A stretch of 64,000 bases of DNA from NCBI GenBank assembly GCA_043800555.1, contig JAZDMX010000007.1, positions 26,683-90,682 of the forward strand, given 5' to 3'. The stretch's first letter is position 1; each line of letters opens with the position of its first letter. This document shows positions 48,498 to 64,000 of this stretch, piece after piece. The notes beneath the pieces were generated by a model. That model ran no database searches. It had not been told where the DNA came from and saw nothing but the letters and a program-made list of their open reading frames with translations. The position numbers and the translations under genes are program-made. This DNA is from Candidatus Omnitrophota bacterium. Lineage in GTDB: Bacteria; Omnitrophota; Gorgyraeia; Gygaellales; Profunditerraquicolaceae.

Positions 48498-48508
48498 TTT
48501 GCTTAAAA

Positions 48509-49003: not shown

Positions 49004-49015
49004 CTTACCCCCCAG

Positions 49016-49071: not shown

Positions 49072-49088
49072 TGGTTAAGACTCACAAA

Positions 49089-49319
49089 TTATAATTTTCC
49101 TGCTAACACAAACGCAAAAACCAGCGCGTAAATAGTCAAGGCCTCAATAAAAGCGCAACCGGTTGCCATGTTAATCAATATCTTAGTTGCCGCTTCCGGT
49201 TGCCTTCCAGTTGCTTCCATAGCCGAAGCAACTGCTTTGCCTAAGCCTAATCCTGAGCCAAACGCGGCCAAACCTAAACCTAAAGGCAATGCTAAAGCTA
49301 ATGCTACCTTATAATCCAT
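49089..49319 (-). CDS. atpE: Fo ATP synthase c subunit
   Basis: 76 aa, two TM helices, GxGxGxG loop motif (LGLGLAAFGSGLGLGKA) and conserved carboxylate helix (CAFIEALTIYALVFAF). Confidence 0.85.
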   Translation of the reverse strand: MDYKVALALALPLGLGLAAFGSGLGLGKAVASAMEATGRQPEAATKILINMATGCAFIEALTIYALVFAFVLAGKL

Positions 49320-49447
49320 TTTTTCCTCCTCAATTTTCCTGTAGTTTTCCCAAAAGATTAACCCCGGGCGCCCGATCTCCCCTGTCAGGCCCGATGAATA
49401 CTTTTCATTACCTTATCCCAAAAACTGGCCCCGAGGCCCCAGCTAAT

Positions 49448-50233: not shown

Positions 50234-50568
50234 ATTCCGGATACCCCCAAGACCAATATCACCAGAGACATTCCTGTTAATAAGCTCGCAACAGGAAGAA
50301 TATTCCAGGTGATGACCAAAAAACCCAATAAATATAATACCGGGAATTTGATCAAAAGCAATAATAAAAGCTTGTTCTTCGCCCGTTTGAGCACGGCTAT
50401 TTCCAATAAATTTATAGTGAGCAGGAAATTTGCCATTAACCAGCTGGCCCCAACGAGAATCCCGGCGCTAAAGGCAAAATTATGCCTAACCCCGAAAATT
50501 AAAGCAAGGCTAAATACCGCGATAACGCTTATATTTATAGGCCTATCCAGCCTCTGGCGCATCAGCAT
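50188..50568 (-). CDS. atpI: ATP synthase protein I (AtpI)-like small membrane protein
   Basis: 126 aa, four predicted TM helices, immediately upstream of and overlapping atpB. Confidence 0.5.
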   Translation of the reverse strand: MLMRQRLDRPINISVIAVFSLALIFGVRHNFAFSAGILVGASWLMANFLLTINLLEIAVLKRAKNKLLLLLLIKFPVLYLLGFLVITWNILPVASLLTGMSLVILVLGVSGIWPSKQHKPNMNCRI

Positions 50569-50804
50569 TCTTTTTTATCTATCCGGCTAACCAGCCTGAT
50601 TATCCTTATCGACTCCCTTATTCCTACCACGATGCCTATTGCGATACAGATAACGAGAGCATAAAAAGGCAGGTTGAATTTCTTTTGCAGATAATCGCCT
50701 AAGAAAAAACCGGACAAAGGAGAAACTGCCAGTATTATGGGAATGTACGAAATCATCCCCGCGATCTTAATCCTTTTATATAGATCCTGCCGGCTAGTTG
50801 CCAT
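50562..50804 (-). CDS. atpZ: AtpZ-like small membrane protein (putative Fo-associated subunit)
   Basis: 80 aa, two TM helices, first gene of the atp operon. Confidence 0.45.
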   Translation of the reverse strand: MATSRQDLYKRIKIAGMISYIPIILAVSPLSGFFLGDYLQKKFNLPFYALVICIAIGIVVGIRESIRIIRLVSRIDKKEC

Positions 50805-50871
50805 AAACTTAAAAATGGCGCCTGCACCCTTTTAAAAAGAGCCGAGGACGCCACTGTCCGATACTGGTAAT

Positions 50872-50899
50872 ATTCTATCTCCTATTTACCGCTTGTCAA
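50872..50899 (-). promoter_or_regulatory. Sigma70-like promoter candidate for the atp operon (TTGACA-16 bp-TAGAAT on the minus strand)
   Basis: Minus-strand reading CTTGACAAGCGGTAAATAGGAGATAGAATATT lies about 70 nt upstream of the atpZ ATG. Confidence 0.35.
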
Positions 50900-50901
50900 G
50901 G

Positions 50902-52881
50902 CTAAACTCTTATCGGCAATACGACAAAAGGTATTCCCTCCCTGTATAATTTTTTCTGCATGGCAAAAACCGTATAATTATGCAGGAACCGGATAGCAAA
51001 CGAATCCTGGGGGAAAATAAGCTGGCCGCCGAAAAATACCGAGTTTGGAAAACGCTCCAGGATTCGGGGCGCGATATTGCCTACCTCCTCTACCACGTCC
51101 GTCCCTACCTCAAATACTCCTTCGGCGTAAAATCCCTGCTTATTCATGAACTTGACGTAACGGATAATATCCGATTTGGCTTCTGTCTTCAACCTGCCGA
51201 CTTCGCTTGTGCCTTTAAAGTTCCCGGCATCAACTATACCTATCTGGACAAAAACAAAGTTTTTGAAGACGCCTCCGAATAATCTTATGATGCCAAACAA
51301 GGTATGCAAGCCTATGCCGTTAAAACCGCTTACCAGTAATACCGCGGTCTTGGACTTAGGATCAGGCTTTATCTCTTTGGCTAAATTAACAGCAGGATTC
51401 AATAGGGCCTCTTCGGCTGATTCTGCCACGGTAACCAGATTATTCAATCTATGCAGGAGCTTTGCGGTTTGATAATAATGCCGCTTTACAAGAATCGCCA
51501 CCACAATCAATGACCCGGTAAAAAACAGAGTGATCCACCCTCCTTCGCCAAACTTAACTATTATCATGGACACAAGTATAAAAGCGCACAAGATAAAGCC
51601 GGTGCCGTTAATAAAAAACTTTTTTATCCAGCCTTTAACCTGGGAACGCACCTGCCACCAATGCCGCACCATACCTGCTTGAGAAAAACAAAAAGTAATA
51701 AATACATTAATGCTATATAAAACTACCAAAAGCTTTACTGAACCGCCGGTTACAACCATAATCAGTAAAGCTAAACCGCCCATAATTAATATGCCATTCT
51801 GGGTTACTAATCTATCGCTTAAAGCTGAAAACCGGTTAGGAAACCAACGGTCGTTAGCCATGTTTGCCAGGACTGCGGGACCCCCAAGGAACCCTGTCTG
51901 GGCGGCTACAAAAAGCAGGGTAGCTTCTGAGAATAAAGCGACTAAGACAAATACGTAGCCCGATTTTCCCCATCCTGCGGTAACCTGTTCAAAAAGAGTG
52001 GCGTTCAATGTCTTACCAGGTTCCAGGGTGACCTGATAAAGTAAATAAGCGATCATCAAACCCAACACTACAAAAGACAGCGATATAGCCATATAACGCA
52101 TGGTTTTTTTGGCGGTTTTTACTTTTGGTTCCCGCAAAACGCTTGTACTGTTGCTAACCGCTTCAATACCGGTAAATGTTCCCGCGCCCATACTGTATGC
52201 CTTAAGAATCAGGAAAATAGTGCCCCACAAGCCTAAACTTGAAACGGTATTATGCACTTCGCCTGCCGTAGAAGCTATCAACGCGCTTGAACCCGATGAG
52301 TGCTTAAACAAACTATAAAAAATAATAAAAACGTGGGTAACTATAAAGGTAAGGAAAATCGGGGTTAATACCAATACTGATTCTTTTATCCCGCGCATAT
52401 TCAAGACCATAAGCGCAAAGACTGCTATAACCGCGAAAAACAGCCTATACGCGTGTAGGCCCATAGGCATAAGGCTAAACAACGCGTCCGCTCCGCTGGC
52501 AACAGAAATAGCGATAGTCAAGACATAATCGATAAGCAAGGCGCATCCGGAAACCATCCCCAGCGTAGGCGATAACAGTTTACTCCCCACTAAATATCCG
52601 CCTCCGCCTCCGGGAAATAACTCAATTATCTGCGAATAACTGGTGCTAATGACAAAAATAGTGAGCACTGTGCCTAAGGCGACAAAAATGCTTAAGTAGG
52701 TATGCGTTCCTAAAGCAAGAAAGGCTTCCTGAGGCCCGTAGCAAGATGAGGATAAGCCATCCGCGCCTAAACCTATCCAGGCAAAGAAAGCTATCAGCGA
52801 TATTTTATGAAAAATCGTGGAATCCTGAGGATCCCGCGACTTTCCTATTACCAGATTCTTTATCCGTTGAATCAGAGACAT
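50902..52881 (-). CDS. APC-superfamily transporter with C-terminal cytoplasmic domain, KimA-like (putative K+/H+ symporter)
   Basis: N-terminus IQRIKNLVIGKSRDP...ISLIAFFAWIGLGADGLSSSCYGPQEAF resembles the KimA/YdaO family signature LLIGKPLK...LAMLSSDALSSVAYGTEQ. Twelve TM helices plus an about 200-aa soluble tail. Confidence 0.55.
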   Translation of the reverse strand: MSLIQRIKNLVIGKSRDPQDSTIFHKISLIAFFAWIGLGADGLSSSCYGPQEAFLALGTHTYLSIFVALGTVLTIFVISTSYSQIIELFPGGGGGYLVGSKLLSPTLGMVSGCALLIDYVLTIAISVASGADALFSLMPMGLHAYRLFFAVIAVFALMVLNMRGIKESVLVLTPIFLTFIVTHVFIIFYSLFKHSSGSSALIASTAGEVHNTVSSLGLWGTIFLILKAYSMGAGTFTGIEAVSNSTSVLREPKVKTAKKTMRYMAISLSFVVLGLMIAYLLYQVTLEPGKTLNATLFEQVTAGWGKSGYVFVLVALFSEATLLFVAAQTGFLGGPAVLANMANDRWFPNRFSALSDRLVTQNGILIMGGLALLIMVVTGGSVKLLVVLYSINVFITFCFSQAGMVRHWWQVRSQVKGWIKKFFINGTGFILCAFILVSMIIVKFGEGGWITLFFTGSLIVVAILVKRHYYQTAKLLHRLNNLVTVAESAEEALLNPAVNLAKEIKPDPKSKTAVLLVSGFNGIGLHTLFGIIRLFGGVFKNFVFVQIGIVDAGNFKGTSEVGRLKTEAKSDIIRYVKFMNKQGFYAEGVFEVGTDVVEEVGNIAPRILERFPNSVFFGGQLIFPQDSFAIRFLHNYTVFAMQKKLYREGIPFVVLPIRV

Positions 52882-52897
52882 TTGCCAAAAACCCAGC

Positions 52898-52955
52898 TAA
52901 TTCCAATGCGGGTATGGAACCGGTTTAACCGGTTCCATACCCGCATTGGAATTAG
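52898..52955. repeat. Palindromic intergenic repeat, copy D (perfect 27-bp arms)
   Basis: CTAATTCCAATGCGGGTATGGAACCGG-TTTAA-CCGGTTCCATACCCGCATTGGAATTAG. Abuts the hppA stop codon; lies upstream of the KimA-like start. Confidence 0.85.
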
Positions 52956-55238
52956 CTAGAAACCAGTTTCTCCTCTTTTCTTAAAACTCAAGGCGCCATG
53001 CTTTGAATACAGTATGGCCCCGAATATCAAGACAACGCAAAGCACGATACTAATTATAACACCCGAGTTAGTTATGCGGTAATGAATAATTATGGGGGCG
53101 GCTAAAAGCGAAACCATATTGATTACCTTAATCATCGGGTTTAGCGCCGGGCCGGCAGTATCCTTTAAGGGATCTCCGACAGTGTCTCCGACAACAGAGG
53201 CCTTATGGCTCTCAGAGCCTTTTCCTCCGTATAAACCGTCTTCAATGGTCTTCTTGGCATTATCCCAGGCGCCGCCAGCGGTGGACATAAAAACCGCCAG
53301 GAGTTGGCCGGAAACAATTACGCCTGCGAGGAACCCGCCTAAAGCCTCAACCCTTAAAACCATCCCGATTAAAAGCGGGCTTAACACTGCGATTAAAGCC
53401 AACCCAATAAGTTCTTTTTGCGCGGATATCGTACAGATATCCACCGCCTTCTTGTAATCCGGCTTAACCTTACCTTCCATTAACCCCGGAGTATGGAACT
53501 GCTTACGCACTTCTTCAACAATCAAAGCCGCTGCTCGGGCAACGGAATTAATCATCAGGCTGGAGAATAAACAGGGGATCGCAGCGCCTATCAAAACGCC
53601 GACAAAGACAATCGGCTCAGATACCCTGATACCGGTTGTTAAGAGCCGCAAAGAATCAACTATTCCCATCTGCGCCTGGACCTTGGTAACATCGGTCAGA
53701 AAGGCGCCGAACAAAGAAACCGCGGCAATTACTGCCGAGCCTATGGCCACACCCTTAGTGATCGCCTTAGTAGTATTTCCTACGGCATCAAGGTCCGCCA
53801 TAATCTGGCGCGCCTGTGGCTCTAAATGCGCCATTTCACCAATGCCGTTAGCGTTATCCGCAATAGGCCCGAATGAATCCATAGCCACGTTATTGCCGGT
53901 TAAAGTAAGCATGCCGATACCGGTCATAGCTACCCCGTAAAGGATAAACACAACGGGTTGGCCCCAATAAATCAGGACGGCAGCCATAATGGTAAGGGCG
54001 ATAACTATAAACTGCCAGGCGCTGGATTCAAGGCCGATTGATATGCCGCGTAAAATCAGGGTGGCCGAACCTGTCCTGCTGGAAGAAGCGATTTCTTTTA
54101 CCGGCGCATGATGCGTATGGGTAAAATACTTGGTTACTTCGTCGATAACAATGGCCAAAACAATACCTATGGCCACAGAAAAGAAGGCCCTCCATTCATG
54201 CATATAATAGTGGGCTAAAATCAAGAACGCAGCTATTGAAATCGCGGCAGACGAATAAAACCCGCGATTAATGCTCTTAAACGCATCCTCTCCTTTACCC
54301 GCCTTTTTGCTCCCTTTAACCAGGTACGTCCCGATAATCGAAGAAAGGACTCCGATACCACGCACTAAAAGCGGAAAAACTATCCACTTCAATTCCCCGG
54401 TAATCGAAACTAACGCCAAGCCTAAGATTAATCCGGACACAATCGTTACTTCATATGACTCGAATATATCCGCGGCCATTCCCGCGCAATCGCCGACATT
54501 ATCCCCTACCAGGTCAGCGATAACCGCGGCATTCCTGGGATCGTCTTCAGGGATATTCTTTTCGACTTTCCCTACAAGATCGGCCCCTACATCGGCGGCC
54601 TTAGTATAAATACCTCCGCCGACGCGCATAAAGAGCGCAAGGAGCGTGCCGCCAAAACCAAAACCCAACAAAACATCGGGAGAAGCAATCCCGAAAATAA
54701 TGAATATGGCCGTGCCGCCTAAAAGGCCAAGGCCATCGGTAAGCATGCCGGTAATGGTCCCTGTGCGGTAAGCAATCTTTAGCGCCTCGGCAAAACTCCG
54801 GCGTGAAGCAGAAGCTACCCGGACATTGCCTTCAACTGCCATACGCATCCCGAATTGGCCTACGGTAAGTGAAAAAAATGCGCCCATAACGAATGCCACA
54901 GCCCTGCCAAAACCAACTATAAGTCGCACCAAGTCCGGAGTAAAATTACTAAAACGCTTTAATGCCTCTTCGCTCGGCGGAATGACATATACCGAAAAAA
55001 ACAAAACAGCGGTGAGGGCTAAAATTAAAGGAAGTATGCTTTTTAACTGGCGGCTTAGATAGGCGTCGGCGCCTGTGCGTATCGCATTCCAGACATCCTG
55101 CATGCCTTGAGTCCCCTTATCCTGGCTTAAAACCTGTTTGCGCAAGAAAAGCGCATAACCTAATCCCAAAAAAGCAATTAAAAGCACGCCCCAAATCGCA
55201 ACCATTTCAAAAGCACTCGCATTCATCAAACCTAGCAT
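52956..55238 (-). CDS. hppA: Membrane-bound proton-translocating pyrophosphatase, K+-independent type
   Basis: 760 aa. GGGIYTKAADVGADLVGKVE and DNVGDCAG motifs. GNTTKA (Lys instead of Ala) marks the K+-insensitive H+-PPase clade. Confidence 0.9.
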   Translation of the reverse strand: MLGLMNASAFEMVAIWGVLLIAFLGLGYALFLRKQVLSQDKGTQGMQDVWNAIRTGADAYLSRQLKSILPLILALTAVLFFSVYVIPPSEEALKRFSNFTPDLVRLIVGFGRAVAFVMGAFFSLTVGQFGMRMAVEGNVRVASASRRSFAEALKIAYRTGTITGMLTDGLGLLGGTAIFIIFGIASPDVLLGFGFGGTLLALFMRVGGGIYTKAADVGADLVGKVEKNIPEDDPRNAAVIADLVGDNVGDCAGMAADIFESYEVTIVSGLILGLALVSITGELKWIVFPLLVRGIGVLSSIIGTYLVKGSKKAGKGEDAFKSINRGFYSSAAISIAAFLILAHYYMHEWRAFFSVAIGIVLAIVIDEVTKYFTHTHHAPVKEIASSSRTGSATLILRGISIGLESSAWQFIVIALTIMAAVLIYWGQPVVFILYGVAMTGIGMLTLTGNNVAMDSFGPIADNANGIGEMAHLEPQARQIMADLDAVGNTTKAITKGVAIGSAVIAAVSLFGAFLTDVTKVQAQMGIVDSLRLLTTGIRVSEPIVFVGVLIGAAIPCLFSSLMINSVARAAALIVEEVRKQFHTPGLMEGKVKPDYKKAVDICTISAQKELIGLALIAVLSPLLIGMVLRVEALGGFLAGVIVSGQLLAVFMSTAGGAWDNAKKTIEDGLYGGKGSESHKASVVGDTVGDPLKDTAGPALNPMIKVINMVSLLAAPIIIHYRITNSGVIISIVLCVVLIFGAILYSKHGALSFKKRGETGF

Positions 55239-55297
55239 TTTGCTACTTCTCCTTTCCCGTTTCTATACCTACGCTCCTAGCCTTACTTTCTATAGAT

Positions 55298-55705
55298 TTA
55301 TTGAGCCGTCGTTGCCGCAATATTCAAATTCCTGACGCCCGCTGCATTTAAAATATCCAACACGCCTACTATGTCTTTAAAACGCACAAGCCTATCCGAA
55401 CTTACGATTACCCCGAGAGAAGGATTATTCTTGCGCCTTAAACCAATCTTTTCCTTTAACTCCTTGCGAGTCACCACAGTTGCGTCCAGATATACCACGC
55501 CTTCATCAGTTATGGCTATATTAACCGGGCTCATATCATTTACCGGGGCCGCGCTGGAAGCCTGCGGTAAGTTTACTTTAAGGCTCGATTGAAGTATTAA
55601 CGGCGTTGTTATCATGAATATTATCAAAAGAACTAAAATAACGTCGGTAAAAGGAGTTATGTTTATCTCGGCGATTAATCTTTGTTTGGGCTTGCGTAAG
55701 TTCAT
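55298..55705 (-). CDS. exbD: ExbD/TolR family biopolymer transport protein
   Basis: INITPFTDVILVLLIIFMITTP is the signature N-terminal TM helix. 135 aa. Confidence 0.8.
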   Translation of the reverse strand: MNLRKPKQRLIAEINITPFTDVILVLLIIFMITTPLILQSSLKVNLPQASSAAPVNDMSPVNIAITDEGVVYLDATVVTRKELKEKIGLRRKNNPSLGVIVSSDRLVRFKDIVGVLDILNAAGVRNLNIAATTAQ

Positions 55706-56367
55706 TTCCGCTTAATGGCCGGGCCTTCGGCCCCGCCAGATGTTGATGGCGAGCGTAACCGGACCATCAATAAATCCATTGTTTCAGAAGCGCACAATTC
55801 CATATCGGTAATAAAATTATCTATCGACTTACTGAAATAATTATACGCGATAACCGCGGGTACCGCAACACAAAGGCCCATAGCCGTGCAAGCCAAAGAT
55901 TCGGATATACCGCTGATAACTACGCTTATACCTCCGGAGCCAGCCATCGATATATCGTGAAAAGCCCGGATAATTCCCAGAACCGTGCCAAAAAGACCGA
56001 TATAAACAGCCGTGCTTCCGATTGTCCCTACTACGCTTGTATATCTCTCAAGTTTAACCGTTTCAATCGCTATCTCTCTTTCCATGGTGTTGGATATGAG
56101 CATTTCGCTATGGCCGGCTAAATTCAGCCCCGCATACACGACGCTTGAAAAAGGGGTGTCCGTATTCTTGCAGGTATCCAGGGCCCTGGTTGTATTCCCT
56201 TTTTCCAGTTCTCCCGATACCTCCGACATAAAATCCGTTCTTTTTATCCTGGATCTCTTACGGTAATAAAAATACCTCTCCATGATAATAGCTAACGATA
56301 AAATCGAGCAAGCTAAAAGTATATATATCGTTAAACCGCCGCTTCGAAGCATCTGCCATATGGTCAT
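55702..56367 (-). CDS. exbB: MotA/TolQ/ExbB proton-channel family protein
   Basis: Three TM helices with conserved ...GLFGTVLGIIRAF... region; translationally coupled to exbD. Confidence 0.8.
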   Translation of the reverse strand: MTIWQMLRSGGLTIYILLACSILSLAIIMERYFYYRKRSRIKRTDFMSEVSGELEKGNTTRALDTCKNTDTPFSSVVYAGLNLAGHSEMLISNTMEREIAIETVKLERYTSVVGTIGSTAVYIGLFGTVLGIIRAFHDISMAGSGGISVVISGISESLACTAMGLCVAVPAVIAYNYFSKSIDNFITDMELCASETMDLLMVRLRSPSTSGGAEGPAIKRK

Positions 56368-56428
56368 TTATTGCCTCCCTATCAAAATAAAATAGCGCAT
56401 TATAGATCGCGGGCAAATCCGCCATCCC

Positions 56429-57031
56429 TTATCTACCATGCATCACTCTCTTTCTCTTCTTGGCGTAAACTAAATTCAGTATCTTGTATGCCAAAAATAT
56501 CAATATTGCAAAAATAACGAGAATTAAAACCACCTTTGTATATTTCACGATTGCCGCCCCGAAAAGGGCCAAAAGCAATATCCTGGGAATTACTCCGATT
56601 AATGTGCAAAATACGAATGGCACAAACGGTATGCAGGTAATGCCCGCGGCAATTGAAAAAACCTTAAACGGGACTATCGGAATCACCCTGCCGATAAGAA
56701 CGCTCATTACTCCGTATTTTTTGGCAAACTCCTCTGCCTTATAAATATGCTGGGGCTTAATAAGTATGAACCTGCCAAACTTCAATAATACCGGCATAGC
56801 AGCATACCTGCCGAGGCAATACCCTACCATGGCCCCCAAGGTCGAACCTAGCGAACCGAAGATAAGGACTGAGCCTAAAGGGATTCCGATTGCGCCGGCG
56901 CTCACGATGATCACTTCAGACGGTATCGGCACTATGCATGATTCAAAGAACATGGCCAGAAAAACGCCTAAATCCCCGAATTTAGGGATTAGGCCGGTTA
57001 AATCATGCTGCAGCAAACTGGATAAATGCAC
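56429..57031 (-). CDS. DedA/TVP38 family membrane protein
   Basis: FLAMFFESCIVPIPSEVIIVSAGA matches the DedA re-entrant motif region. 200 aa. Confidence 0.75.
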   Translation of the reverse strand: MHLSSLLQHDLTGLIPKFGDLGVFLAMFFESCIVPIPSEVIIVSAGAIGIPLGSVLIFGSLGSTLGAMVGYCLGRYAAMPVLLKFGRFILIKPQHIYKAEEFAKKYGVMSVLIGRVIPIVPFKVFSIAAGITCIPFVPFVFCTLIGVIPRILLLALFGAAIVKYTKVVLILVIFAILIFLAYKILNLVYAKKRKRVMHGR

Positions 57032-57040
57032 AATCCCCTT

Positions 57041-57397
57041 CTATTGCTTATAATGAAAAACTACTCTCAGTTTATTTTTATCCAATTGCGCCAACTCTAC
57101 CTCTTTAGTCGCCTCCAGCGCCTTTTTCGGGCAGGAATCTACGCACTGCGCGCAATAAATGCAACGGCTCAGATCAAACACAGCTTCAAATTTATTCTCG
57201 CCGGTTTTATTAATGGTAATGGCATTGGTCGGGCAATCCCGCATGCACATTTTGCAGCCAATGCATTTTTCGGGATCAAATTTAATTTTCCCCCGGAACC
57301 TATCCGGCATCTCCAACTTTTGCGCCGGATATAAATTCGTAGCCGGTTTCTTAAAGATAGAACCCAAGACCTCCCTCAACATCTTTGCCGGTCTCAT
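57041..57397 (-). CDS. 2x[4Fe-4S] ferredoxin-like subunit (NuoI/MbhN-like) of the membrane-bound hydrogenase
   Basis: Two CxxCxxCxxxCP motifs: CIGCKMCMRDCP and CIYCAQCVDSCP. Confidence 0.75.
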   Translation of the reverse strand: MRPAKMLREVLGSIFKKPATNLYPAQKLEMPDRFRGKIKFDPEKCIGCKMCMRDCPTNAITINKTGENKFEAVFDLSRCIYCAQCVDSCPKKALEATKEVELAQLDKNKLRVVFHYKQ

Positions 57398-58335
57398 TTT
57401 AAAAAGGCTCCTTTCAAGATAAGGTTAAGCAAAAGTTGCAATAGCGCTAAGGGAACCAGGAATTTCCAACAAAAACTAATCATCTGGTCTATGCGCAGGC
57501 GCGCCACAACTGTGCGTAATAACGCGATCAAACTTACGATACATAAGACCTTGATAACAAAAATCATAAACCCTAACACGGGATTTACGTTTAAGCCAAA
57601 AGGAAAAAATACCAACGCCAACAAAGCGCTTCCGGCAATCATTTCTACGTCCAGGGTCATTCTTAAAAAAGCAAGCATCCTCCCGCTATATTCGGTAAAA
57701 CCTCCGGCGACTACTTCTGTTTCGGCTTCCGGGATATCAAAAGGCACCTTTTCAAGCTTGCCCAGCAAACTAACTAAAGATACGCCAAAACCTAACAAGT
57801 TAAACGCCCAAAACCACGGATGCGCCATATAAAAATCCGCTAATTTCTTTAACGACCAGGTATCTGCCAGGAGCGCCGAAGAAAGAATGCCCATAAACAG
57901 CGGGACCTCATAGGCAAATAACTGGGTAAGCGAGCGCACTGAACCGATCCTGGAATATAACGAAGTTGAATACCAGCCGCCGATAAAAAATGCCAAAGTT
58001 GGCAGCGTCAACAAATAAAGCACAACTATGATATCGCCGTTAAAAGAAAAAAGCGCGCCTGTTTTCCAAAGAGGAATGTAGAGAAACGCGGTTACTGCCG
58101 AAGCCAAAGCAAATATCGGGGCAATTTTAAACATCTTAGGGTTGGACTCAGCCGGGATAATATCTTCTTTAGCCAAAAGCTTGATAAAATCCGCGAAAGG
58201 CTGAAACCACGGCGGCCCGACCCTGTTTTGCAACCGGGCATAAATCTTCCGATCGATGAATTCCGCGATTAAGGCGAAAATGACCAAGAAAATCAACCCC
58301 GGGAACACAATGATATAAAATAATGATCCTGCCAT
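57394..58335 (-). CDS. NuoH/MbhM-like integral membrane subunit of the membrane-bound hydrogenase
   Basis: MAGSLFYIIVFPGLIFLVIFALIAEFIDRKIYARLQNRVGPPWFQPFADFIKLL aligns with the NuoH N-terminus. Start set to the ATG at 58335 (GAGG SD). The ORF-track GTG at 58362 runs toward repeat E. Confidence 0.8.
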   Translation of the reverse strand: MAGSLFYIIVFPGLIFLVIFALIAEFIDRKIYARLQNRVGPPWFQPFADFIKLLAKEDIIPAESNPKMFKIAPIFALASAVTAFLYIPLWKTGALFSFNGDIIVVLYLLTLPTLAFFIGGWYSTSLYSRIGSVRSLTQLFAYEVPLFMGILSSALLADTWSLKKLADFYMAHPWFWAFNLLGFGVSLVSLLGKLEKVPFDIPEAETEVVAGGFTEYSGRMLAFLRMTLDVEMIAGSALLALVFFPFGLNVNPVLGFMIFVIKVLCIVSLIALLRTVVARLRIDQMISFCWKFLVPLALLQLLLNLILKGAFLK

Positions 58336-58364
58336 AATTGCCTCAACACCCTCTCTAACCACAA

Positions 58365-58420
58365 AATTCCAATGCGGGTTTGGAACGTGCTTAAAACCTA
58401 TTCCAAACCCGCATTGGAAT
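58365..58420. repeat. Palindromic repeat, copy E, located inside the hydrogenase operon (between large subunit and NuoH-like genes)
   Basis: AATTCCAATGCGGGTTTGGAAC-gtgcttaaaaccta-TTCCAAACCCGCATTGGAAT. The loop is the reverse complement of the loop of copy F. Confidence 0.85.
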
Positions 58421-58428
58421 AGGTTTAA

Positions 58429-59664
58429 TTACTTCGATAACCTATCCTGAAGCTTTTTATTAAGCGGGGTAAAATCTATTCCCCGTTCCCTATGCCATTG
58501 TACGCTGTAAGCATGCAAAGCGGACCAGTTAACTACTTTGTCCCCGGCGCAATCCTGCTCCCTCAAACGGACCATCCGGTCAGTGCAGGAAAAACACGGG
58601 TCAATTGCCGCAATCACTATCGGCATGTCTGCCAAGAATCTATCGCGAAGCATATGCTTTACCGCCTGGACATTGGCTAAAGTAGGAGCCCTGATTTTCA
58701 CCCTATCCGGTTTTTCAGTGCCGTTAGATTTAACATAATGCACATCTTCTCCACGCGGAGCCTCATAACGGCTGATTGCCTCTCCGGCAGGGATCTTACG
58801 CGGCGCCCTTACTGCTACCGGGCCATCGGGCAAATTCTTAAGCGCCTGGCGGATAATTTTATAACTCTCCAAGAGTTCTTTCACCCGCACCACCGTCCTG
58901 CCGTAAACATCGCAATGATCATCGGTAACCACATTAAAAGAAAGCTCCCCGTAAGCGGCATAAGGATCATCGGCCCGGACATCCCGCTTAACTCCGCTTG
59001 CCCGGGCAGTCGGCCCTACTGCGTCAAGCCGCAAAACATCTTCACGCAAAAGTATTCCTACCCCGGATAATCTTTTAATTATAGTAGTTTCTTCGGTAGC
59101 AACCTCAATATAATATTTGGTCCTTTCTTCGAGAGTTTCCAGCCCTTTAAGTATCTCCTGCGCCTGTTGGGGGCTTATGTCGCGCCGGACTCCGCCAATA
59201 GTATTCATCCCGTAATTAACCCTATTGCCGCTAATAGAAGCGAGTATATCCATTACCACTTCCCTGTCCCTCCATGAATACATAAGCAAGGTATCGAAAC
59301 CGATTTCATGTCCGGCGACACCCAACCATAAAAGATGGCTATGGATTCTTTCTAATTCAGCAATGATGGTGCGGATATACAAGGCCCGAGGCGGGACAGC
59401 TAATCCGGCAATCTCTTCAACCGCTTGGATAAAACACGTAGAATGAGAATGCGAACAGATACCGCAGACGCGTTCGATAAGGTAGATATCCTGTATATAA
59501 GTCCTCTCTTCGGCTGCCTTTTCTATGCCGCGATGATTATAGCCCAAGCGGATATCCACGCCAAGGATCTTCTCGCCTTTAAGCGCGACGCTAAAACCTT
59601 CCGGTTCTTTTAAGGCCGGGTGCTGAGGGCCAATTGGAATCTTAAAATCTGGTGAATTACGCAT
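58429..59664 (-). CDS. Group 4 [NiFe]-hydrogenase large subunit (NuoD/MbhL/EchE-like) retaining both Ni-Fe ligand motifs
   Basis: L1 motif RVCGICSHSH (C-G-I-C-S-x-x-H) near the N-terminus and L2 motif DPCFSCTDR near the C-terminus. Confidence 0.8.
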   Translation of the reverse strand: MRNSPDFKIPIGPQHPALKEPEGFSVALKGEKILGVDIRLGYNHRGIEKAAEERTYIQDIYLIERVCGICSHSHSTCFIQAVEEIAGLAVPPRALYIRTIIAELERIHSHLLWLGVAGHEIGFDTLLMYSWRDREVVMDILASISGNRVNYGMNTIGGVRRDISPQQAQEILKGLETLEERTKYYIEVATEETTIIKRLSGVGILLREDVLRLDAVGPTARASGVKRDVRADDPYAAYGELSFNVVTDDHCDVYGRTVVRVKELLESYKIIRQALKNLPDGPVAVRAPRKIPAGEAISRYEAPRGEDVHYVKSNGTEKPDRVKIRAPTLANVQAVKHMLRDRFLADMPIVIAAIDPCFSCTDRMVRLREQDCAGDKVVNWSALHAYSVQWHRERGIDFTPLNKKLQDRLSK

Positions 59665-60136
59665 TTTTGCCTACCTCGCCTTCTTTAGCCGGCTTGGCTT
59701 TCCAGTCTTTCCTCAAAGGATACTCGCCGGCTGGCCAGTCATCGGTCAAGGGATACCGATTACCAGAGCCTAAACCATCAACCTCGGCTCCGAACAAATC
59801 CACTAACTCCCTCTCGTAAATCTCCGCACCGGGAAAATAAGGAATAACCGTCTTGATTACTGGAGCGTTTTTTGGGGCAGCCGTCTTTAGATTAACCAAA
59901 ATCCCTGAATCAGCTGCCAAATGGTATATAAATCCCAATGTTTCCTGCTCATCCAAGCCGGTTATCGTGCATAAATGCGAAAATCGCAGGTCCTTGGCTA
60001 AATACGCAAAAACCGGCATAAAATTATCCAAACCGACTTCAACGGATATGCGCCGGGGCCGGATTATCCTGACGGAATCGCTAAGATAATTAAACTTGTT
60101 AACTAGGCTCTCTTTAATTTCTTCTTCCTGGGACAT
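59657..60136 (-). CDS. NuoC/MbhK-like 30-kDa subunit of the hydrogenase
   Basis: 159 aa. ...LCTITGLDEQE...ERELVDLFG is the NuoC-family core (ERE-x2-D-x-FG). Confidence 0.75.
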   Translation of the reverse strand: MSQEEEIKESLVNKFNYLSDSVRIIRPRRISVEVGLDNFMPVFAYLAKDLRFSHLCTITGLDEQETLGFIYHLAADSGILVNLKTAAPKNAPVIKTVIPYFPGAEIYERELVDLFGAEVDGLGSGNRYPLTDDWPAGEYPLRKDWKAKPAKEGEVGKNA

Positions 60137-60138
60137 AA

Positions 60139-60597
60139 TTACCTCCCGCTCTTCTTAATTTCTTCTTTTTCTTCAAGGCTAGTCAAAAGTTTGACCACGC
60201 CATCAATAATTGCCTTGGGGCTGGCCGGGCAACCCGGGATATATGCTGAGACAGGAATAACTTTATCTATACCCGAAGCTACGTTATAACATTTATCAAA
60301 CACGCCGCCGGAACAAGCGCAGGTACCAACCGCCACCACGAATTTCGGCTCAGGCATCTGTTCATAAATGCGGCGCAGCCTGTCTTCTATCTGTTTGGTT
60401 ACCGGGCCTGAACAAACCAAAACATCCGCATGGCGAGGCGTTCCTTTCAAGACCACCCCAAAACGCTCCAAATCATACCTTGGGGTTAAGGCAGCAATGA
60501 TTTCAATATCGCAAGCATTGCAGGCTCCGGTATTGAAATGCAAAATCCACGGTGATTTTATCCTTGCCCAAGTAACTATTTTCTTGACTAAACCCAT
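60139..60597 (-). CDS. Hydrogenase small subunit (NuoB/MbhJ-like, proximal [4Fe-4S] cluster)
   Basis: GACNACDIE (CxxC, hydrogenase-type rather than NuoB CC) ... GTCACSGG ... IPGCPASP. Start set to the ATG at 60597 (MGLVKK...); the ORF-track 20-aa extension is a translation of repeat copy F. Confidence 0.8.
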   Translation of the reverse strand: MGLVKKIVTWARIKSPWILHFNTGACNACDIEIIAALTPRYDLERFGVVLKGTPRHADVLVCSGPVTKQIEDRLRRIYEQMPEPKFVVAVGTCACSGGVFDKCYNVASGIDKVIPVSAYIPGCPASPKAIIDGVVKLLTSLEEKEEIKKSGR

Positions 60598-60607
60598 AAT
60601 CTTAACC

Positions 60608-60664
60608 AGTTCCAATGCGGGTTTGGAATAGGTTTTGAGCACGTTCCAAACCCGCATTGGAACT
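60608..60664. repeat. Palindromic repeat, copy F, inside the hydrogenase operon (between NuoA-like and small-subunit genes)
   Basis: AGTTCCAATGCGGGTTTGGAAT-aggttttgagcac-GTTCCAAACCCGCATTGGAACT. Same unit as copy E in opposite orientation. Confidence 0.85.
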
Positions 60665-60667
60665 TAC

Positions 60668-61000
60668 CTATTTCCTTAATAATACATATAAACCAATGAT
60701 ACCGCCGATAATATAAAAAATAGCCATAATCAAAGCGCCAATATTAACAAAATGCATAGTAGCAATCATCAAAGTAGAGACATGCGCTAAAGTAAAGAAA
60801 AAAGCAAAAGGAAAAAACTGGCTGTAATCAGGCTGCGCGGAATTATCAAAATTACTCTCTCCGCAGGCATAAGATTCATAGGAGTCTGCCTTGGGTTTAT
60901 TCGAGCGATATGCCAGCCTAGAAAATAAACGGTTAAGCAGGAATAATAAAACCAGCACTATTACAAAAGCTACTGCCGGATTAGCAAGCCAGTTACCCAT
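60668..61000 (-). CDS. NuoA/ND3-like small membrane subunit (MbhI-position)
   Basis: 110 aa, three TM helices, YESYACGE loop resembling the NuoA YECG motif. Confidence 0.5.
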   Translation of the reverse strand: MGNWLANPAVAFVIVLVLLFLLNRLFSRLAYRSNKPKADSYESYACGESNFDNSAQPDYSQFFPFAFFFTLAHVSTLMIATMHFVNIGALIMAIFYIIGGIIGLYVLLRK

Positions 61001-61006
61001 TAAAAA

Positions 61007-61300
61007 TTATCCTTTCAGCTTCCTGATGTTCCTTGCGTCCAATGAATTGGTGTGGCGATGGATCCCTAAAACAACGCCAACCGCTACAGTCATGATTACG
61101 ACTTCTATTACAATAATAGTAATTACCAGCGCCTGGGCCAAAGCCAGGTTACCGCTTTTTAAGCCAGCAGATATAACTAAAAGCGTAACCGCTTTAATCA
61201 GGATTTCGATTCCGATTAAAACCCGGATTAAATTATGGGTCGCCAGGATGCAGTAAATTCCGATAACAAAAAGTAAAACTACAAAAATTCCGCTAACCAC
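61007..61300 (-). CDS. NuoK/MrpC-like small membrane subunit
   Basis: Three TM helices (FVVLLFVIGIYCILA...). Start moved to the GTG at 61300, immediately preceded by AAGGAAG and 4 nt after the upstream stop. The ORF-track start at 61378 would overlap the upstream gene by 86 nt. Confidence 0.55.
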   Translation of the reverse strand: MVSGIFVVLLFVIGIYCILATHNLIRVLIGIEILIKAVTLLVISAGLKSGNLALAQALVITIIVIEVVIMTVAVGVVLGIHRHTNSLDARNIRKLKG

Positions 61301-61784
61301 CCTTCTTCCTTTCCTTAAATAATACCACGACTCCGAAAACTCCGGTAAAGAGTATGATAATCTGCCCCAGTAAATCAAGCTGCCTTAAATGCCATAAAAC
61401 CAGGCGCGGGTCAGGCTCAACTTCGGGTAAAGGTAATTTCGCCTTAAAGCTCATGCTCGCTAAGCCAAGCGCTATCCCCAGAATTATTATTATCAAAGGC
61501 AGCCCCCGGAAACGCTCAAGCCTTGACTTCATATGCTCGATAACCTCTTTATGAGTCATAGCCTGAGTCAGGCTGATTACGCTGATAAACAAAACCGGGA
61601 TTAACCCTGCGCAAACAGACAATTCAAAGACTGCCGCCAAGGAAGCGTTCATCCTGAAAATTATCAAAGTCAAAACCGCGCTCATTAAGGCTAGGCCGAT
61701 AGCCGAACGTAAAAGGCTCCTGGTCATTACTGTCCAGAGCGCCGCGATAACCAATAACACTAAAATCAACACATCCAGGAACAA
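61293..61784 (-). CDS. MrpB/MnhB-like membrane subunit (MbhD/E-like)
   Basis: 163 aa, four TM helices, in the Mrp-module position upstream of NuoK-like. Confidence 0.5.
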   Translation of the reverse strand: MFLDVLILVLLVIAALWTVMTRSLLRSAIGLALMSAVLTLIIFRMNASLAAVFELSVCAGLIPVLFISVISLTQAMTHKEVIEHMKSRLERFRGLPLIIIILGIALGLASMSFKAKLPLPEVEPDPRLVLWHLRQLDLLGQIIILFTGVFGVVVLFKERKKGG

Positions 61785-61785
61785 A

Positions 61786-63216
61786 CTAACCTCCTACTAT
61801 GGGAAGAAACCCCAAGATAAATCCCTTAAGCAGCCAGGGTGACAACACCCCAACCGCTACAATTAAGGATGCCAGGAATATCGCCGGAAACATCAAGCTG
61901 AAACCGGCTTCTCGAACATCCTTAAATTCATCGCGAGGCTTACCAAAGAATACTTTTCTTTGCAGGGCCAGAAAATAAGCCAGGGTCAAAAGGCTTCCTA
62001 ATACGGCAATAACCGCGTAAGTCTTGCAACCAGCCAACCACAAAGCAATGATTATAACCAATTTGCTCCAGAACCCGGCTAAAGGAGGAATTCCTGCGCA
62101 GGATAAACTTCCTATTACCGAAGTTAAGCTGGTTAAAGGCATCTGCTTGGCTAAGCCACCCATCTTCTCTATATCCCTTGAGCCCAGCCTATCTTCTACT
62201 GCAGCGGAATTAATGAAAAGAAGCGATTTAAAAGCAGCGTGATTAAAAATATGCAGGGCTGCTCCGGCAACCCCTAAAACTGTCCCGCTTCCGACTCCTA
62301 AGATAATATAACCGACCTGGCTAATACTCGAATAGCTAAGCATCCTTTTAAAATCGCTCTGGGTAAGAGCAGCCAGGGCCCCAAGGACAATCGAGAAGGC
62401 CCCGATAAATAGAAGAATAGGCTGTATTGAAACGCTAAACCCGAGCATCGATACGATGATCCTGATCAAAGAATAAACTCCGGCAACTTTAGTAATTATC
62501 CCCGCCAATAATATCGAGGCCGGGGCCGGGGCCGAAGTATAAACATCCGGCAACCAGCCATGAAAAGGCATCAGCCCGGATTTAATAAACAGGGCCACGA
62601 TAAATAACCCTATAGCTAAGCTGGCTATGAGGCTTTTACCCTGGTCGATAAGCATATAATGGACCAGCGAAAAATTTGTGCTTCCGGCAATAAGGATTAA
62701 CAAGGCTATGCCCGCAATCATCAAAACAGTGGCCACTCCGGATAGAACAATGTATTTGAACGCGCCTTCTAAGCCGGGCATATCCCGGTTAAACGCTATC
62801 AATATAAATGAAGAAACCGCTGTAACCTCTAAGAATACATAGAGTGAAAACACGTCTTTAGCCATAGTCACGGCATTCATTCCGGCGACAGCAATTAAAA
62901 GTATATTTATGAAATTGAACTTCTCGGCGTTATTCTTTATAAACGTAAGGGCGCTGAATAAAGTTACGAAAGAAACCATGGCAATGCAAAACAAAGCCAC
63001 TTTGCTTAAAATATCTACCCCGAGTTCAAAATTAAAAATGCTGGCGCAAAACGCATGATTCGCCTTCCAGAAAACAGGATCCGGAAGCAAAACCACCGCC
63101 ATCTGGAGCAAGGATAAAATGGCGGCCAGGCCAAAAGCCATTCTCCTAATCCCTTTAAGCGGAAGATTCAGGATTAATACGCTAAGAAATGGAATTAATA
63201 TTAATGCCGCGCACAC
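61786..63216 (-). CDS. MrpD/NuoN/NuoM-like antiporter-type membrane subunit
   Basis: 476 aa, about 14 TM helices. Conserved antiporter-module motifs (...WLPDVYTSAPAPASILLAGI..., ...GIPPLAGFWSK...). Confidence 0.75.
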   Translation of the reverse strand: MCAALILIPFLSVLILNLPLKGIRRMAFGLAAILSLLQMAVVLLPDPVFWKANHAFCASIFNFELGVDILSKVALFCIAMVSFVTLFSALTFIKNNAEKFNFINILLIAVAGMNAVTMAKDVFSLYVFLEVTAVSSFILIAFNRDMPGLEGAFKYIVLSGVATVLMIAGIALLILIAGSTNFSLVHYMLIDQGKSLIASLAIGLFIVALFIKSGLMPFHGWLPDVYTSAPAPASILLAGIITKVAGVYSLIRIIVSMLGFSVSIQPILLFIGAFSIVLGALAALTQSDFKRMLSYSSISQVGYIILGVGSGTVLGVAGAALHIFNHAAFKSLLFINSAAVEDRLGSRDIEKMGGLAKQMPLTSLTSVIGSLSCAGIPPLAGFWSKLVIIIALWLAGCKTYAVIAVLGSLLTLAYFLALQRKVFFGKPRDEFKDVREAGFSLMFPAIFLASLIVAVGVLSPWLLKGFILGFLPIVGG

Positions 63217-63282
63217 TTGAATACTCTCTTTTCTGTTAGGGCCAGCCCTACTCTTACAGCATCCGGCATAGAGCCTCTATTG

Positions 63283-64000
63283 CTACCGAAGAATAAGTAA
63301 CCCAAAAATAATGAGCATACCCGAAATTGCCCATGCCAGATAAACCGCATAATTACCCGTATGCAGTTTTCTTATGCCGGAGGAAAAACCATAAGCCAAC
63401 CGCACGCTTAAACTATCATAAACCCAGTTTATCCCCCTGTCCAAACCTAAGCTAATTTTAGAAATAATATTTATTAAACCCATGCCCCAATTATACGGGT
63501 CAAAAAACCTTTTTTCGGCCAAATCATAAATATTGGAGATAACAGGGAAATAGCGGATATGGTCCAAAGCGTGTAAGCCGCTTCCCCCCTTTTTTAAACC
63601 GAATAAATGATTAACTACGGCTAAAATTAACACTACAAAAGTAATTGCCACAAGCGCAGGATTCGCCGGAAAACCGCTAAAATGATGCCCCCCTAACCTT
63701 TCAGCCCCTAAGATGGGCTCAATGAGGTAATTTAAAGGCAACCAATTGAATAAACCGAAAATTGTGCAGATAAGGGCAATAACAACCATGGGTATAAGCA
63801 TGGCAAAATGCGCTTCTTTTACCTTTTCATTTCCCGGGTTGGCTTTACCCATAAAAGCAGAATGCCCGAGCTTTAAAAAAGAGGCGGCAGTAAGGAAAGA
63901 ACCTGCTACTGCCATAAAATAAAATATCCAACCTCGTTCCAGGGCTCCGTCATACACAAGCTCCTTGGAGAAAAATCCGTTAAAAGGCCAAACGCCTGAG
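63283..64000 (-). CDS. Second antiporter-like (NuoL/MrpA-type) membrane subunit, 5'-truncated by the window edge
   Basis: The frame is open from 64000 with no stop (…SGVWPFNGFFSKELVYDGALERGW…). The ORF-track M at 63957 is a GTG. Contains the …FLKLGHSAFMG… C-terminal antiporter motif. Confidence 0.5.
   Translation of the reverse strand, partial: SGVWPFNGFFSKELVYDGALERGWIFYFMAVAGSFLTAASFLKLGHSAFMGKANPGNEKVKEAHFAMLIPMVVIALICTIFGLFNWLPLNYLIEPILGAERLGGHHFSGFPANPALVAITFVVLILAVVNHLFGLKKGGSGLHALDHIRYFPVISNIYDLAEKRFFDPYNWGMGLINIISKISLGLDRGINWVYDSLSVRLAYGFSSGIRKLHTGNYAVYLAWAISGMLIIFGLLILR

Follow-up and report, generated by a model that had tools for sequence, protein, structure and literature searches.

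A probable group 4 [NiFe]-hydrogenase operon with complex-I-like subunits and gene order in a Candidatus Omnitrophota genome

A stretch of 64,000 nucleotides from a Candidatus Omnitrophota metagenome-assembled genome (contig JAZDMX010000007.1; "the window" hereafter refers to this whole stretch) was analysed for an operon at its end that encodes a probable energy-converting [NiFe]-hydrogenase built from complex-I-like subunits. Ten tightly packed genes lie on the minus strand between positions 57041 and 64000, with spacings of at most 93 bp, several overlaps, and no room for additional genes between the ten (Table 1). The same genes, at the same coordinates, had been listed in a first-pass annotation made from the sequence alone, and matches to protein families confirmed them. 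Since these matches are joined by exact matches to NCBI records (the proteins MFH0855415-MFH0855423 are identical to window products), the ten-gene observation is real and far beyond chance. The exact matches also set the starts of the NuoH-, NuoB-, and NuoK-like genes at positions 58335, 60597, and 61300, respectively, and these three genes are therefore shorter than the longest open reading frames; for ant3, the NCBI record has another start codon. The large-subunit record (MFH0855418.1, 100% identical) is annotated as "nickel-dependent hydrogenase large subunit," and the NuoA-like and NuoJ-like proteins are deposited as "hypothetical protein." The order nuoA-B-C-D-H-I was found to be kept and NuoEFG to be missing from the operon, both as initially described.

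Both NiFe motifs of the large subunit had been called intact, and this was borne out: L1 reads RVCGICSHSH (Cys67, Cys70) and L2 reads DPCFSCTDR (Cys357, Cys360), i.e., all four NiFe cysteines are present. The L2 arginine, the position at which HycI-type proteases cut, is followed by a C-terminal tail of 48 residues whose counterpart in the alignment is the peptide cleaved from the C-terminus of Escherichia coli HycE. In searches against the PDB, the best solved relative of the large subunit was Pyrococcus furiosus MbhL (E 9e-99, 334 bits), with E. coli HycE at E 5e-83 and 283 bits (the alignment extending into the C-terminal extension), Thermus Nqo4 at E 2e-66 and 228 bits, and the sulfur reductase subunit MbsL at E 1.5e-53 and 186 bits. 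When compared with E. coli proteins, the D, B, and I subunits all scored higher with Hyc/Hyf than with Nuo (large subunit: 283 and 258 bits vs 164 bits; small subunit: HycG 123 bits and HyfI 121 bits vs NuoB 111 bits; NuoI-like subunit: HycF 70 bits vs NuoI 57 bits). The small subunit carries one [4Fe-4S] site with the pattern CxxC...C...CP, C-N-A-C included, which is of the hydrogenase proximal-cluster type, and reading its sequence revealed no tandem Cys-Cys of the complex I N2 cluster. Two CxxCxxCxxxCP motifs are present in the NuoI-like subunit (NF006221, E 3e-31; TIGR01971 NuoI, E 1e-25), and the NuoH-like anchor resembles MbhM (147 bits) and Nqo8 (133 bits) to a similar degree, with MbsM and HycD at 84 and 83 bits. 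According to Pfam, NCBIfam, and PDB matches, the group 4 subunit set is complete, comprising a short small subunit with a single cluster, a NuoI-like subunit, a NuoH-like anchor, and antiporter-like subunits. Judged by these sequence features, the catalytic module is that of a hydrogenase and not of complex I.

Table 1 Features of the window (positions in the window; "-" denotes the minus strand; aa, amino acids)
Feature	Position	Strand	Evidence and remarks
NuoL-like subunit "ant2," 3' part, last ~238 codons	63283-64000	-	cut by window end; ~611 aa in relatives
Antiporter-like subunit "ant3," 476 aa, MbhH/MrpD/NuoM-N type	61786-63216	-	PF00361 E 4e-69
NuoJ equivalent, 163 aa	61293-61784	-	PF00499 E 2.5e-7, PF13244 E 1e-3; = MFH0855423.1
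NuoK/MrpC/MbhG-like subunit, 97 aa	61007-61300	-	PF00420 E 1e-16; = MFH0855422.1
NuoA/ND3-like subunit, 110 aa, three transmembrane helices	60668-61000	-	family profile; = MFH0855421.1
Hydrogenase small subunit/NuoB-like, 152 aa	60139-60597	-	PF01058 E 2e-32; = MFH0855420.1
NuoC/MbhK-like subunit, 159 aa	59657-60136	-	PF00329 E 1e-21; = MFH0855419.1
[NiFe] large subunit, 411 aa	58429-59664	-	PF00346 E 8e-72 and PF00374 E 1e-12; = MFH0855418.1
NuoH/MbhM-like membrane anchor, 313 aa	57394-58335	-	PF00146 E 3e-77; = MFH0855417.1
NuoI/MbhN-like 2x[4Fe-4S] subunit, 118 aa, final hydrogenase gene	57041-57397	-	Fer4 families; = MFH0855416.1
DedA	56429-57031	-	
ExbB	55702-56367	-	
ExbD	55298-55705	-	
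Membrane pyrophosphatase	52956-55238	-	
APC-type permease	50902-52881	-	
F-type ATP synthase operon	atpI-like 50562-50804 through beta 44125-45525	-	
ATP synthase c subunit, 76 aa	49089-49319	-	
Carbamoyl-phosphate synthase large-subunit gene, 557 aa	35611-37284	-	

The part of the operon upstream of position 64000 was read from three relatives with flanks of 10 kb, namely L001, L004, and L002, whose large subunits are 89%, 80%, and 78% identical to that of the window. In all three, the operon opens with a protein of 480 amino acids (ant1; Proton_antipo_N and Proton_antipo_M), followed by an antiporter-like protein of 611 amino acids (ant2) and then by the same nine genes. Directly upstream of ant1, carB (L001), a flavodoxin-like gene (L002), or nucleotidyltransferase genes (NTP_transf_5; L004) were found. 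Because ant1 is thus the first gene and is bounded by unrelated genes, the operon is taken to comprise eleven genes, nine and a half of which lie in the window, while the remaining one and a half were deduced from these relatives at 78-89% identity. The first-pass annotation had expected the operon to continue beyond the window, which it does, and to supply MrpE/F/G-like subunits there, which it does not: the relatives show only the rest of the NuoL-like gene and one antiporter-like gene, and the Pfam families of MrpE, MrpF, and MrpG were detected neither within 10 kb of the operon in L001, L002, and L004 nor in any relative examined. Hence, the upstream Mrp-antiporter module proposed initially gives way to two NuoL, one NuoM/N, one NuoJ, and one NuoK equivalent, and because the upstream genes are of these kinds, the operon amounts to exactly the 11 subunit types of a minimal complex I. 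On the strength of the sequence matches, each of the eleven proteins is assigned a single counterpart among NuoA, B, C, D, H, I, J, K, and three subunits of the L/M/N type. A plain Mrp Na+/H+ antiporter (MrpA-G without a redox module) was rejected since MrpE/F/G genes are absent from all relatives examined; only MrpA-, B-, C-, and D-like parts occur, and these lie within the hydrogenase operon.

Regarding the three antiporter-like subunits, ant1 (480 amino acids, read from relatives) is of the MrpA/NuoL type (PDB: MrpA 1.5e-59; NdhF and NuoL ~1e-54 to 1e-58); its most similar E. coli protein is HyfD (193 bits; NuoL 187 bits), it has Val at the position of transmembrane helix (TM) 8, as does E. 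coli NuoL, and it ends without an extension. The frame of ant2 runs from 63283 to 63999 without a stop codon up to the window edge. Its call as a truncated NuoL/MrpA-like subunit held, as the fragment corresponds to the C-terminal 225 residues of NuoL (NF005141, E 2e-16, model positions 386-610 of 615) and is 72% identical to residues 375-606 of the 611-amino-acid L001 protein. It spans TM12-TM15, an amphipathic lateral-helix region of ~80 residues, and the last TM helix, and its hydropathy profile accordingly displays TM13, TM14, and TM15, then ~80 non-membrane residues, and then a terminal TM helix. A single-sequence AlphaFold2 model of the C-terminus contains a 45-residue helix before the last TM helix, which at a predicted local distance difference test score of 52 lends low-confidence, weak support only and was too poor for a fold search. 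Full-length ant2 of the relatives (611 amino acids) had its top scores with MbhH, Nqo12, and MrpA, and ant3 matched MbhH (4e-64), MrpD (9e-54), and MbsH (7e-52) in the PDB. The latter subunit carries the TM5 Glu, TM7 Lys, TM8 Lys, TM11 His, and TM12 Lys; across ~50 orthologous sets, ant1, ant2, and ant3 all show little or no variation at the TM5 Glu, TM7 Lys, and TM12 Lys, and the TM8 Lys is retained in ant2 and ant3.

A separate observation concerns the NuoL signature, which is divided in the bacterial eleven-gene family (ant1 187 bits, ant2 132 bits vs E. coli NuoL): a 480-amino-acid NuoL/MrpA-type core without a C-terminal extension (L001, 3244-6518 region) stands next to a separate 611-amino-acid subunit that bears the lateral helix and the last TM helix. 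Hfo-like archaeal, Chloroflexota, and Caldisericota relatives have one NuoL-type subunit of 580-690 amino acids instead (229-300 bits vs E. coli NuoL). In L021 (Margulisiibacteriota), an open reading frame of 1010 amino acids upstream of ant3 represents ant1 and ant2 as a single frame. If this fusion is natural, the two subunits would be adjacent in the membrane; alternatively, it is an artefact of assembly or frameshift.

The 163-amino-acid protein, previously labelled MrpB-like, was reassigned with the help of a 62-sequence profile. Its N-terminal half is MbhD/MbsD-like (DUF4040) and its C-terminal half weakly MrpB/MbhE-like; the profile matched MbsD (5e-13) and MbhD (2e-12) in the PDB, both over the N-terminal half, as well as E. 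coli NuoJ (3e-6, residues 6-113) and, over the whole length, the MrpA C-terminal domain (E 0.05). An invariant residue, Glu54, falls in the alignment on the glutamate of the ALEI motif of NuoJ. The protein is thus predicted to be the NuoJ equivalent in the form of a fused MbhD and MbhE/MrpB-like subunit. The NuoK-like subunit is closer to E. coli NuoK (33 bits) than to HyfE (6 bits) and has both membrane glutamates (LIGIEIL, VIEVVIM). As a single sequence, the NuoA-like subunit matched PF00507 at E 1e-4, just short of the Pfam cut-off, and had no significant match in the PDB (ND3, E 0.16). Since these single-sequence matches are weak, the NuoA call, which stands, became firm only with a profile of 68 orthologues that gave full-length matches to ~23 ND3/NuoA/NdhC chains (best E 3e-5). 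An MbhI-like identity of this subunit was rejected (profile E 0.24, N-terminal 43 residues only). Additionally, it was observed that Tyr44 and Gly47 are invariant in the NuoA-like family, within a YACGE motif of the TM1-TM2 loop, that a near-invariant His73 takes the place of Asp79 of E. coli NuoA, and that the family is without both acidic residues of the NuoA TM2 motif (FDVE).

A database search with the large subunit returned 120 close homologues, all at least 76% identical, and the named ones among them are almost all from Omnitrophota; among 50% clusters, the nearest ones besides its own are from Methanoregula, Anaerolineales, Bathyarchaeota, and Promethearchaeota/Hodarchaeota. Scanning of GTDB species genomes yielded at least 80 loci at 51-79% identity, which were annotated with phmmer, the queries being the eleven proteins of L001. 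The identical order ant1-ant2-ant3-J-K-A-B-C-D-H-I was present in ~50 of the best 80 loci listed. Among the loci listed, those with this order are spread over roughly ten bacterial phyla, i.e., Omnitrophota, Planctomycetota (Phycisphaerae, Sedimentisphaerales), Elusimicrobiota, Spirochaetota, Margulisiibacteriota, Bacillota, Myxococcota (Polyangiaceae), Acidobacteriota (Aminicenantes, Holophaga, and others), Bacteroidota (Bacteroidales), and Actinomycetota (Coriobacteriia). Variant orders were J-K-ant(582)-ant(503)-A-B-C-D-H-I in Anaerolineae, J-K followed by three antiporter-like genes and then A-I in a Caldisericota metagenome-assembled genome, and the nuo/fpo-like B-C-D-H-I-J-K-ant-ant-ant in the Bathyarchaeia locus L073. 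One of the Anaerolineae is the cultured Longilinea arvoryzae KOME-1 (L082, NZ_DF967972.1, 3618242-3639393), which has the ten-gene variant (J-K-ant582-ant507-A-B-C-D-H-I) together with HycI and a large subunit that is 54% identical.

For the placement of the large subunit, a neighbour-joining tree was calculated from the loci, 150 cluster representatives, E. coli HycE, HyfG, and NuoCD, and MbhL as transcribed from an alignment. The eleven-gene loci grouped together, followed by sequences from Chloroflexota, Bathyarchaeia, Methanoregula, and Asgard archaea, with MbhL outside and HycE and HyfG farther away. In a bootstrap analysis (100 replicates, 69 taxa), the eleven-gene set excluded the four references MbhL, HycE, HyfG, and NuoCD in 94% of replicates, and the eleven-gene set plus the Chloroflexota/Bathyarchaeia/Asgard variants excluded them in 83%; there was no clean separation of the eleven-gene set from the variants (6% of replicates). 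HydDB has classed hydrogenases of Omnitrophota (Ca. Saelkia, Ca. Gorgyraea) as "Group 4g, Mrp-linked" (PMC8542988) and an Endomicrobium enzyme as 4g (PMC11257099), both of which may be the same proteins as those analysed here, and the Bathyarchaeota enzymes are likewise 4g (PMC5037454); the group is loosely clustered, polyphyletic, and uncharacterised (PMC5037454, PMC13582414). With a probability of roughly 70%, we read the operon as encoding an energy-converting group 4 [NiFe]-hydrogenase of the complex I type (Hfo-like, HydDB 4g) that is ferredoxin-linked and ion-translocating. The Mbh/Ech-type energy-converting hydrogenase suggested initially was right in its group 4 assignment but, in the strict sense, probably not in its type, as the large subunit groups with the archaeal Hfo lineage (4g) in the neighbour-joining tree.

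A strictly Mbh-like enzyme would combine a redox proton pump with Na+/H+ exchange in an upstream "Mrp module," giving a net sodium gradient. The closest solved homologues of several subunits are indeed Mbh chains (MbhL 9e-99, MbhH 4e-64, MbhM 147 bits, MbhD 2e-12), and the Omnitrophota 4g enzymes have been labelled "Mrp-linked" (PMC8542988). Furthermore, the P. furiosus Mbh (group 4d; PDB 6CFW) shares the B-C-D-H-I gene block (MbhJ-K-L-M-N) and a presumed ferredoxin donor with the operon, and it provides the best solved homologue of the large subunit, ant3, the anchor, and the N-terminal half of the NuoJ-like protein. However, MbhA, B, C, and F (MrpE/F/G-type) have no counterpart in the eleven contiguous genes, whose flanks are unrelated in relatives, there are three antiporter-like subunits vs one in Mbh, MbhD and MbhE are fused as the NuoJ-like subunit, the subunit upstream of NuoB matches NuoA/ND3 rather than MbhI, and 83% of the bootstrap trees separate the large subunit from MbhL. 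In addition, the ATP synthase c subunit encoded in the window lacks the Gln and Ser/Thr that we presume to bind Na+. Such an enzyme is hence considered quite unlikely, and strict membership in 4d was rejected on account of the missing sodium module MbhA/B/C/F.

The preferred 4g-type hydrogenase must have its large subunit matured by Hyp proteins and a HycI-type protease. A homologue of the E. coli protease HycI follows nuoI in most loci listed, and hypA-F flank the operon in ~12 loci (L020, L028, L029, L031, L035, L038, L055, L060, L066, L071, L074, and L075). HycI does not follow nuoI in the window, L001, or L002, and the large subunit of the window keeps its cleavable tail. These genes also bear on the possibility that the operon does not encode a hydrogenase but a complex I/Fpo-like or Ehr-type oxidoreductase with quinone or another acceptor, or a decaying remnant. 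Many homologues are named "NADH-quinone oxidoreductase subunit D" in JGI, the NCBIfam NuoD models score high on the large subunit, yet below their cut-offs, there are no maturation genes in the window, and the NiFe cysteines are lost in some proteins near the clade (see below). Opposed to this are the four NiFe cysteines and the cleavage tail of the window protein, the presence of the L1 and L2 motifs in 82 of 85 related loci (the exceptions being one locus with a variant L1 and two whose gene is cut off by a contig end), the small subunit without the tandem cysteines of complex I, and the HycI and hyp genes linked to the operon in relatives; decay is contradicted by 51-89% identity across phyla with unchanged gene order. 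We therefore regard an enzyme other than a hydrogenase as very improbable. Membership in complex I/Fpo was rejected because of the four NiFe cysteines and the C-N-A-C of the small subunit, and membership in Ehr, whose large subunit has no NiFe cysteines, because these cysteines are present and MbsL scored 186 bits vs 334 bits for MbhL. As a side observation, three cluster representatives (P0143, P0180, and P0187; ~41-46% identical) that have lost the NiFe cysteines occupy positions within the eleven-gene clade of the neighbour-joining tree or adjacent to it, and they may be Ehr-like derivatives of this hydrogenase lineage.

The closest described system is Hfo of Bathyarchaeia, an eleven-subunit hydrogenase with Fpo/Nuo gene architecture and a 4g large subunit (lineage 4g-6) reported by Loh, Herve and Brune in 2021 (PMC7886697). 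The two systems agree in their set of eleven subunit types, with A, B, C, D, H, I, J, and K next to three antiporter-like subunits, and in having intact L1 and L2, and neither has a NuoEFG/FpoF input module or an Mbh sodium module; the large subunits of the Bathyarchaeia loci L073-L075 are 58-59% identical to that of the window, fall into the same bootstrap-supported clade, and have HycI or hyp genes nearby. In contrast, the membrane-arm genes of Hfo come after the catalytic genes, as in nuo/fpo, whereas the Omnitrophota operon has them before, so only the A-B-C-D-H-I block of the fpo/nuo order A-B-C-D-H-I-J-K-L-M-N is common. Hfo-like loci also combine one 680-amino-acid NuoL-type subunit (229-289 bits to E. 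coli NuoL) with two M/N-type subunits, compared with the 480-amino-acid NuoL-type core, the 611-amino-acid lateral-helix subunit, and one M/N-type subunit of the bacterial family, and the Hfo host is archaeal rather than bacterial. Since eleven-subunit 4g hydrogenases have already been described as Hfo, the Omnitrophota operon is most probably a bacterial member of an already recognised, uncharacterised kind (4g, Hfo-like). In our literature search, the coverage of which was incomplete, we found neither a follow-up on Hfo past the original paper nor a paper on the bacterial eleven-gene family as such. Within the same incomplete coverage, the bacterial order with upstream membrane-arm genes, the split NuoL signature, and the breadth across bacterial phyla were not found described.

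Other related systems differ more clearly from the operon. Complex I and its Fpo-like eleven-subunit form (NUO11) share with it the one-to-one set of subunits, the nuoA-B-C-D-H-I order, a NuoL-type lateral helix with TM16, the NuoJ/NuoK glutamates, and the antiporter channel residues; the operon differs from them in its four NiFe cysteines, the protease-cleaved tail, CxxC instead of the N2 tandem Cys, the replacement of NuoA Asp79 and Glu81 (with His73 conserved), the upstream position of the membrane-arm genes, and catalytic subunits that score higher with Hyc/Hyf than with Nuo. E. coli Hyf/Hyc (4a) are likewise group 4 enzymes with a HycI-type protease and a C-terminal extension, and Hyf also has three antiporter-like subunits. 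Here, however, there is no formate dehydrogenase partner and no HycB/HyfA, C and D are unfused, NuoA- and NuoJ-like subunits are present, and the NuoK-like subunit matches NuoK instead of HyfE. Formate hydrogenlyase/Hyf (4a) was rejected on the separate C and D, the missing HycB/HyfA/Fdh, and the position of HycE outside the clade, and Ech (4e) and Coo (4c), which have six subunits with a single antiporter-like one, were rejected on the eleven genes and three antiporter-like subunits. In the literature, Asgard archaea have been assigned complex-I-like hydrogenase groups 4j-4q with shortened arms in a 2024 preprint (10.1101/2024.07.04.601786), and Mbh-like enzymes with antiporter-like subunits but without the oxidoreductase module have been mentioned for candidate phyla in metagenomic work (PMC6349859).

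For the preferred 4g-type hydrogenase, the following mechanism can be proposed. Electrons from reduced ferredoxin would enter at the NuoI-like subunit with its two [4Fe-4S] clusters; ferredoxin as donor is suggested by homology and by the fact that the operon encodes no electron-input module besides this subunit (no NuoEFG, FpoF, HycB/HyfA, or Fdh). From there, the electrons would pass via the single NuoB-like cluster to the NiFe site of the large subunit, the ligands of which were found in place, and protons would be reduced to H2. The NuoH-like anchor and the loop conserved in the NuoA-like subunit would link the reaction to the translocation of ions, and the arm would presumably be formed by the NuoJ- and NuoK-like subunits with their glutamates and by the three antiporter-like subunits with their Glu, Lys, and His residues, braced by the NuoL-type lateral helix. 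The ion gradient would finally be used by the F-type ATP synthase and by further proteins, likewise encoded directly downstream, that depend on such a gradient. Evolution of H2 is the probable direction because Omnitrophota with 4g enzymes have been described as fermenters (PMC8542988), and H+ rather than Na+ is the presumed coupling ion.

Several points weigh against this reading. No 4g member has been characterised biochemically (PMC5037454, PMC7886697), and donor, direction, and coupling ion are therefore taken over from homologues. The subgroup was assigned from a crude neighbour-joining tree with few labelled references. No credible Hyp or HycI was detected anywhere in the 64-kb window by tblastn with ~55 HycI sequences from relatives and by phmmer with E. 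coli HypA-F, HycI, and HycH. Moreover, electron transfer from ferredoxin to protons yields far less energy than that from NADH to quinone, and in the H2-evolving direction, one ion per H2 cannot be pumped along every one of four complex-I-like paths; Hyf poses the same energetic puzzle. This shortfall leaves room for a reverse mode or for internal ion exchange. In the reverse mode, the same enzyme would oxidise H2, and the inward flow of several ions through the large membrane arm would power the endergonic reduction of ferredoxin, to be used in CO2 fixation or in further reactions at low potential. By our own energetic reasoning, up to four conserved ion paths suit a high ion/electron ratio better in uptake. 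The same proposal, reduction of ferredoxin with H2 at the cost of membrane potential, was made for Hfo by Loh et al. (PMC7886697), and some 4g-bearing Omnitrophota (Ca. Gorgyraea) encode the Wood-Ljungdahl pathway (PMC8542988). Most 4g-bearing Omnitrophota, however, have been described as sugar fermenters that dispose of reductant (PMC8542988), and nothing in the window indicates autotrophy; the neighbouring genes for ATP synthase, pyrophosphatase, and transporters fit both directions. Operation in reverse is accordingly viewed as unlikely, though less so than the strictly Mbh-like enzyme.

The structure of the membrane arm deserves separate consideration. In the structures of Mbh and MBS, the antiporter subunit is situated beside the anchor, where complex I has NuoA/J/K, and in Mbh the connecting loop and helix are supplied by MbhI (PMC8165549). 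The NuoA-like connecting subunit of the operon hints at the complex I arrangement as opposed to the inverted, Mbh-like one. It is conceivable, albeit doubtful at present, that the bacterial family represents a true hydrogenase with the membrane arm of complex I, i.e., NuoH, A/J/K, three antiporter-like subunits, and the lateral-helix brace. If so, four potential ion paths would be attached to an enzyme with a fraction of the redox span of complex I, and the ion/electron ratio would have to be geared down by partial Na+/H+ exchange, by slipping, or by obligatory reverse, gradient-driven reduction of ferredoxin; the NuoL signature split over two subunits would be a new way to build such an arm. 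The family would also be a living bacterial example of the NiFe-bearing eleven-subunit ancestor postulated by Moparthi and Hagerhall (2011), who stated that NuoA and NuoJ are absent from all hydrogenases (PMC3144371).

The window itself is ordinary in that it adds one further family member in a fermentative-looking Omnitrophota genome, and its importance would rise if a complex-I-type arm geometry together with an unusual ion stoichiometry were demonstrated. To our knowledge, group 4g is the only large class of energy-converting hydrogenases without a characterised member. Its complex-I-like enzymes would be the closest living relatives of the step from a proton-reducing enzyme to a quinone-reducing proton pump, and with the family at hand it may be asked how many ions are moved per H2 and whether the arm geometry of complex I is older than the loss of the NiFe site. 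Far from being limited to a few archaea, the eleven-subunit, complex-I-equivalent form occurs in fixed order in about ten bacterial phyla, its carriers including abundant uncultured groups (Omnitrophota, Aminicenantes, Elusimicrobiota, and Phycisphaerae). The two-antiporter variant of the cultured L. arvoryzae KOME-1 may offer an experimental entry to the family. With respect to annotation, NuoA- and NuoJ-like subunits go under-noticed when they are recorded as "hypothetical protein," and the division of the NuoL signature between two subunits is a second trait that has drawn little attention.

The hydrogenase genes are followed immediately downstream by a series of membrane-energetics genes at positions 44125-57031 of the minus strand (Table 1). 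The gap between nuoI and dedA measures 9 bp and contains no terminator-like site; the counts of the promoter and terminator scan were at or near shuffle expectation and thus uninformative. L001, L004, and L010 likewise have DedA, ExbB, and ExbD after the hydrogenase, whereas other phyla do not, and this adjacency was treated as lineage-level synteny. As the three genes follow the operon in Omnitrophota-level relatives only, they were rejected as extra hydrogenase subunits. The c subunit of the ATP synthase has its carboxylate in ...FIEALTIYAL... and is without the helix-1 Gln and the Ser/Thr beside the Glu of what we take to be the Na+-binding signature, which suggests proton coupling. The rest of the window contains housekeeping genes. 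The product of its carbamoyl-phosphate synthase large-subunit gene has 557 amino acids, whereas that of carB located directly upstream of the hydrogenase operon in L001 has 1071; this reflects either a split or half-size gene or a local difference in gene order between close relatives.

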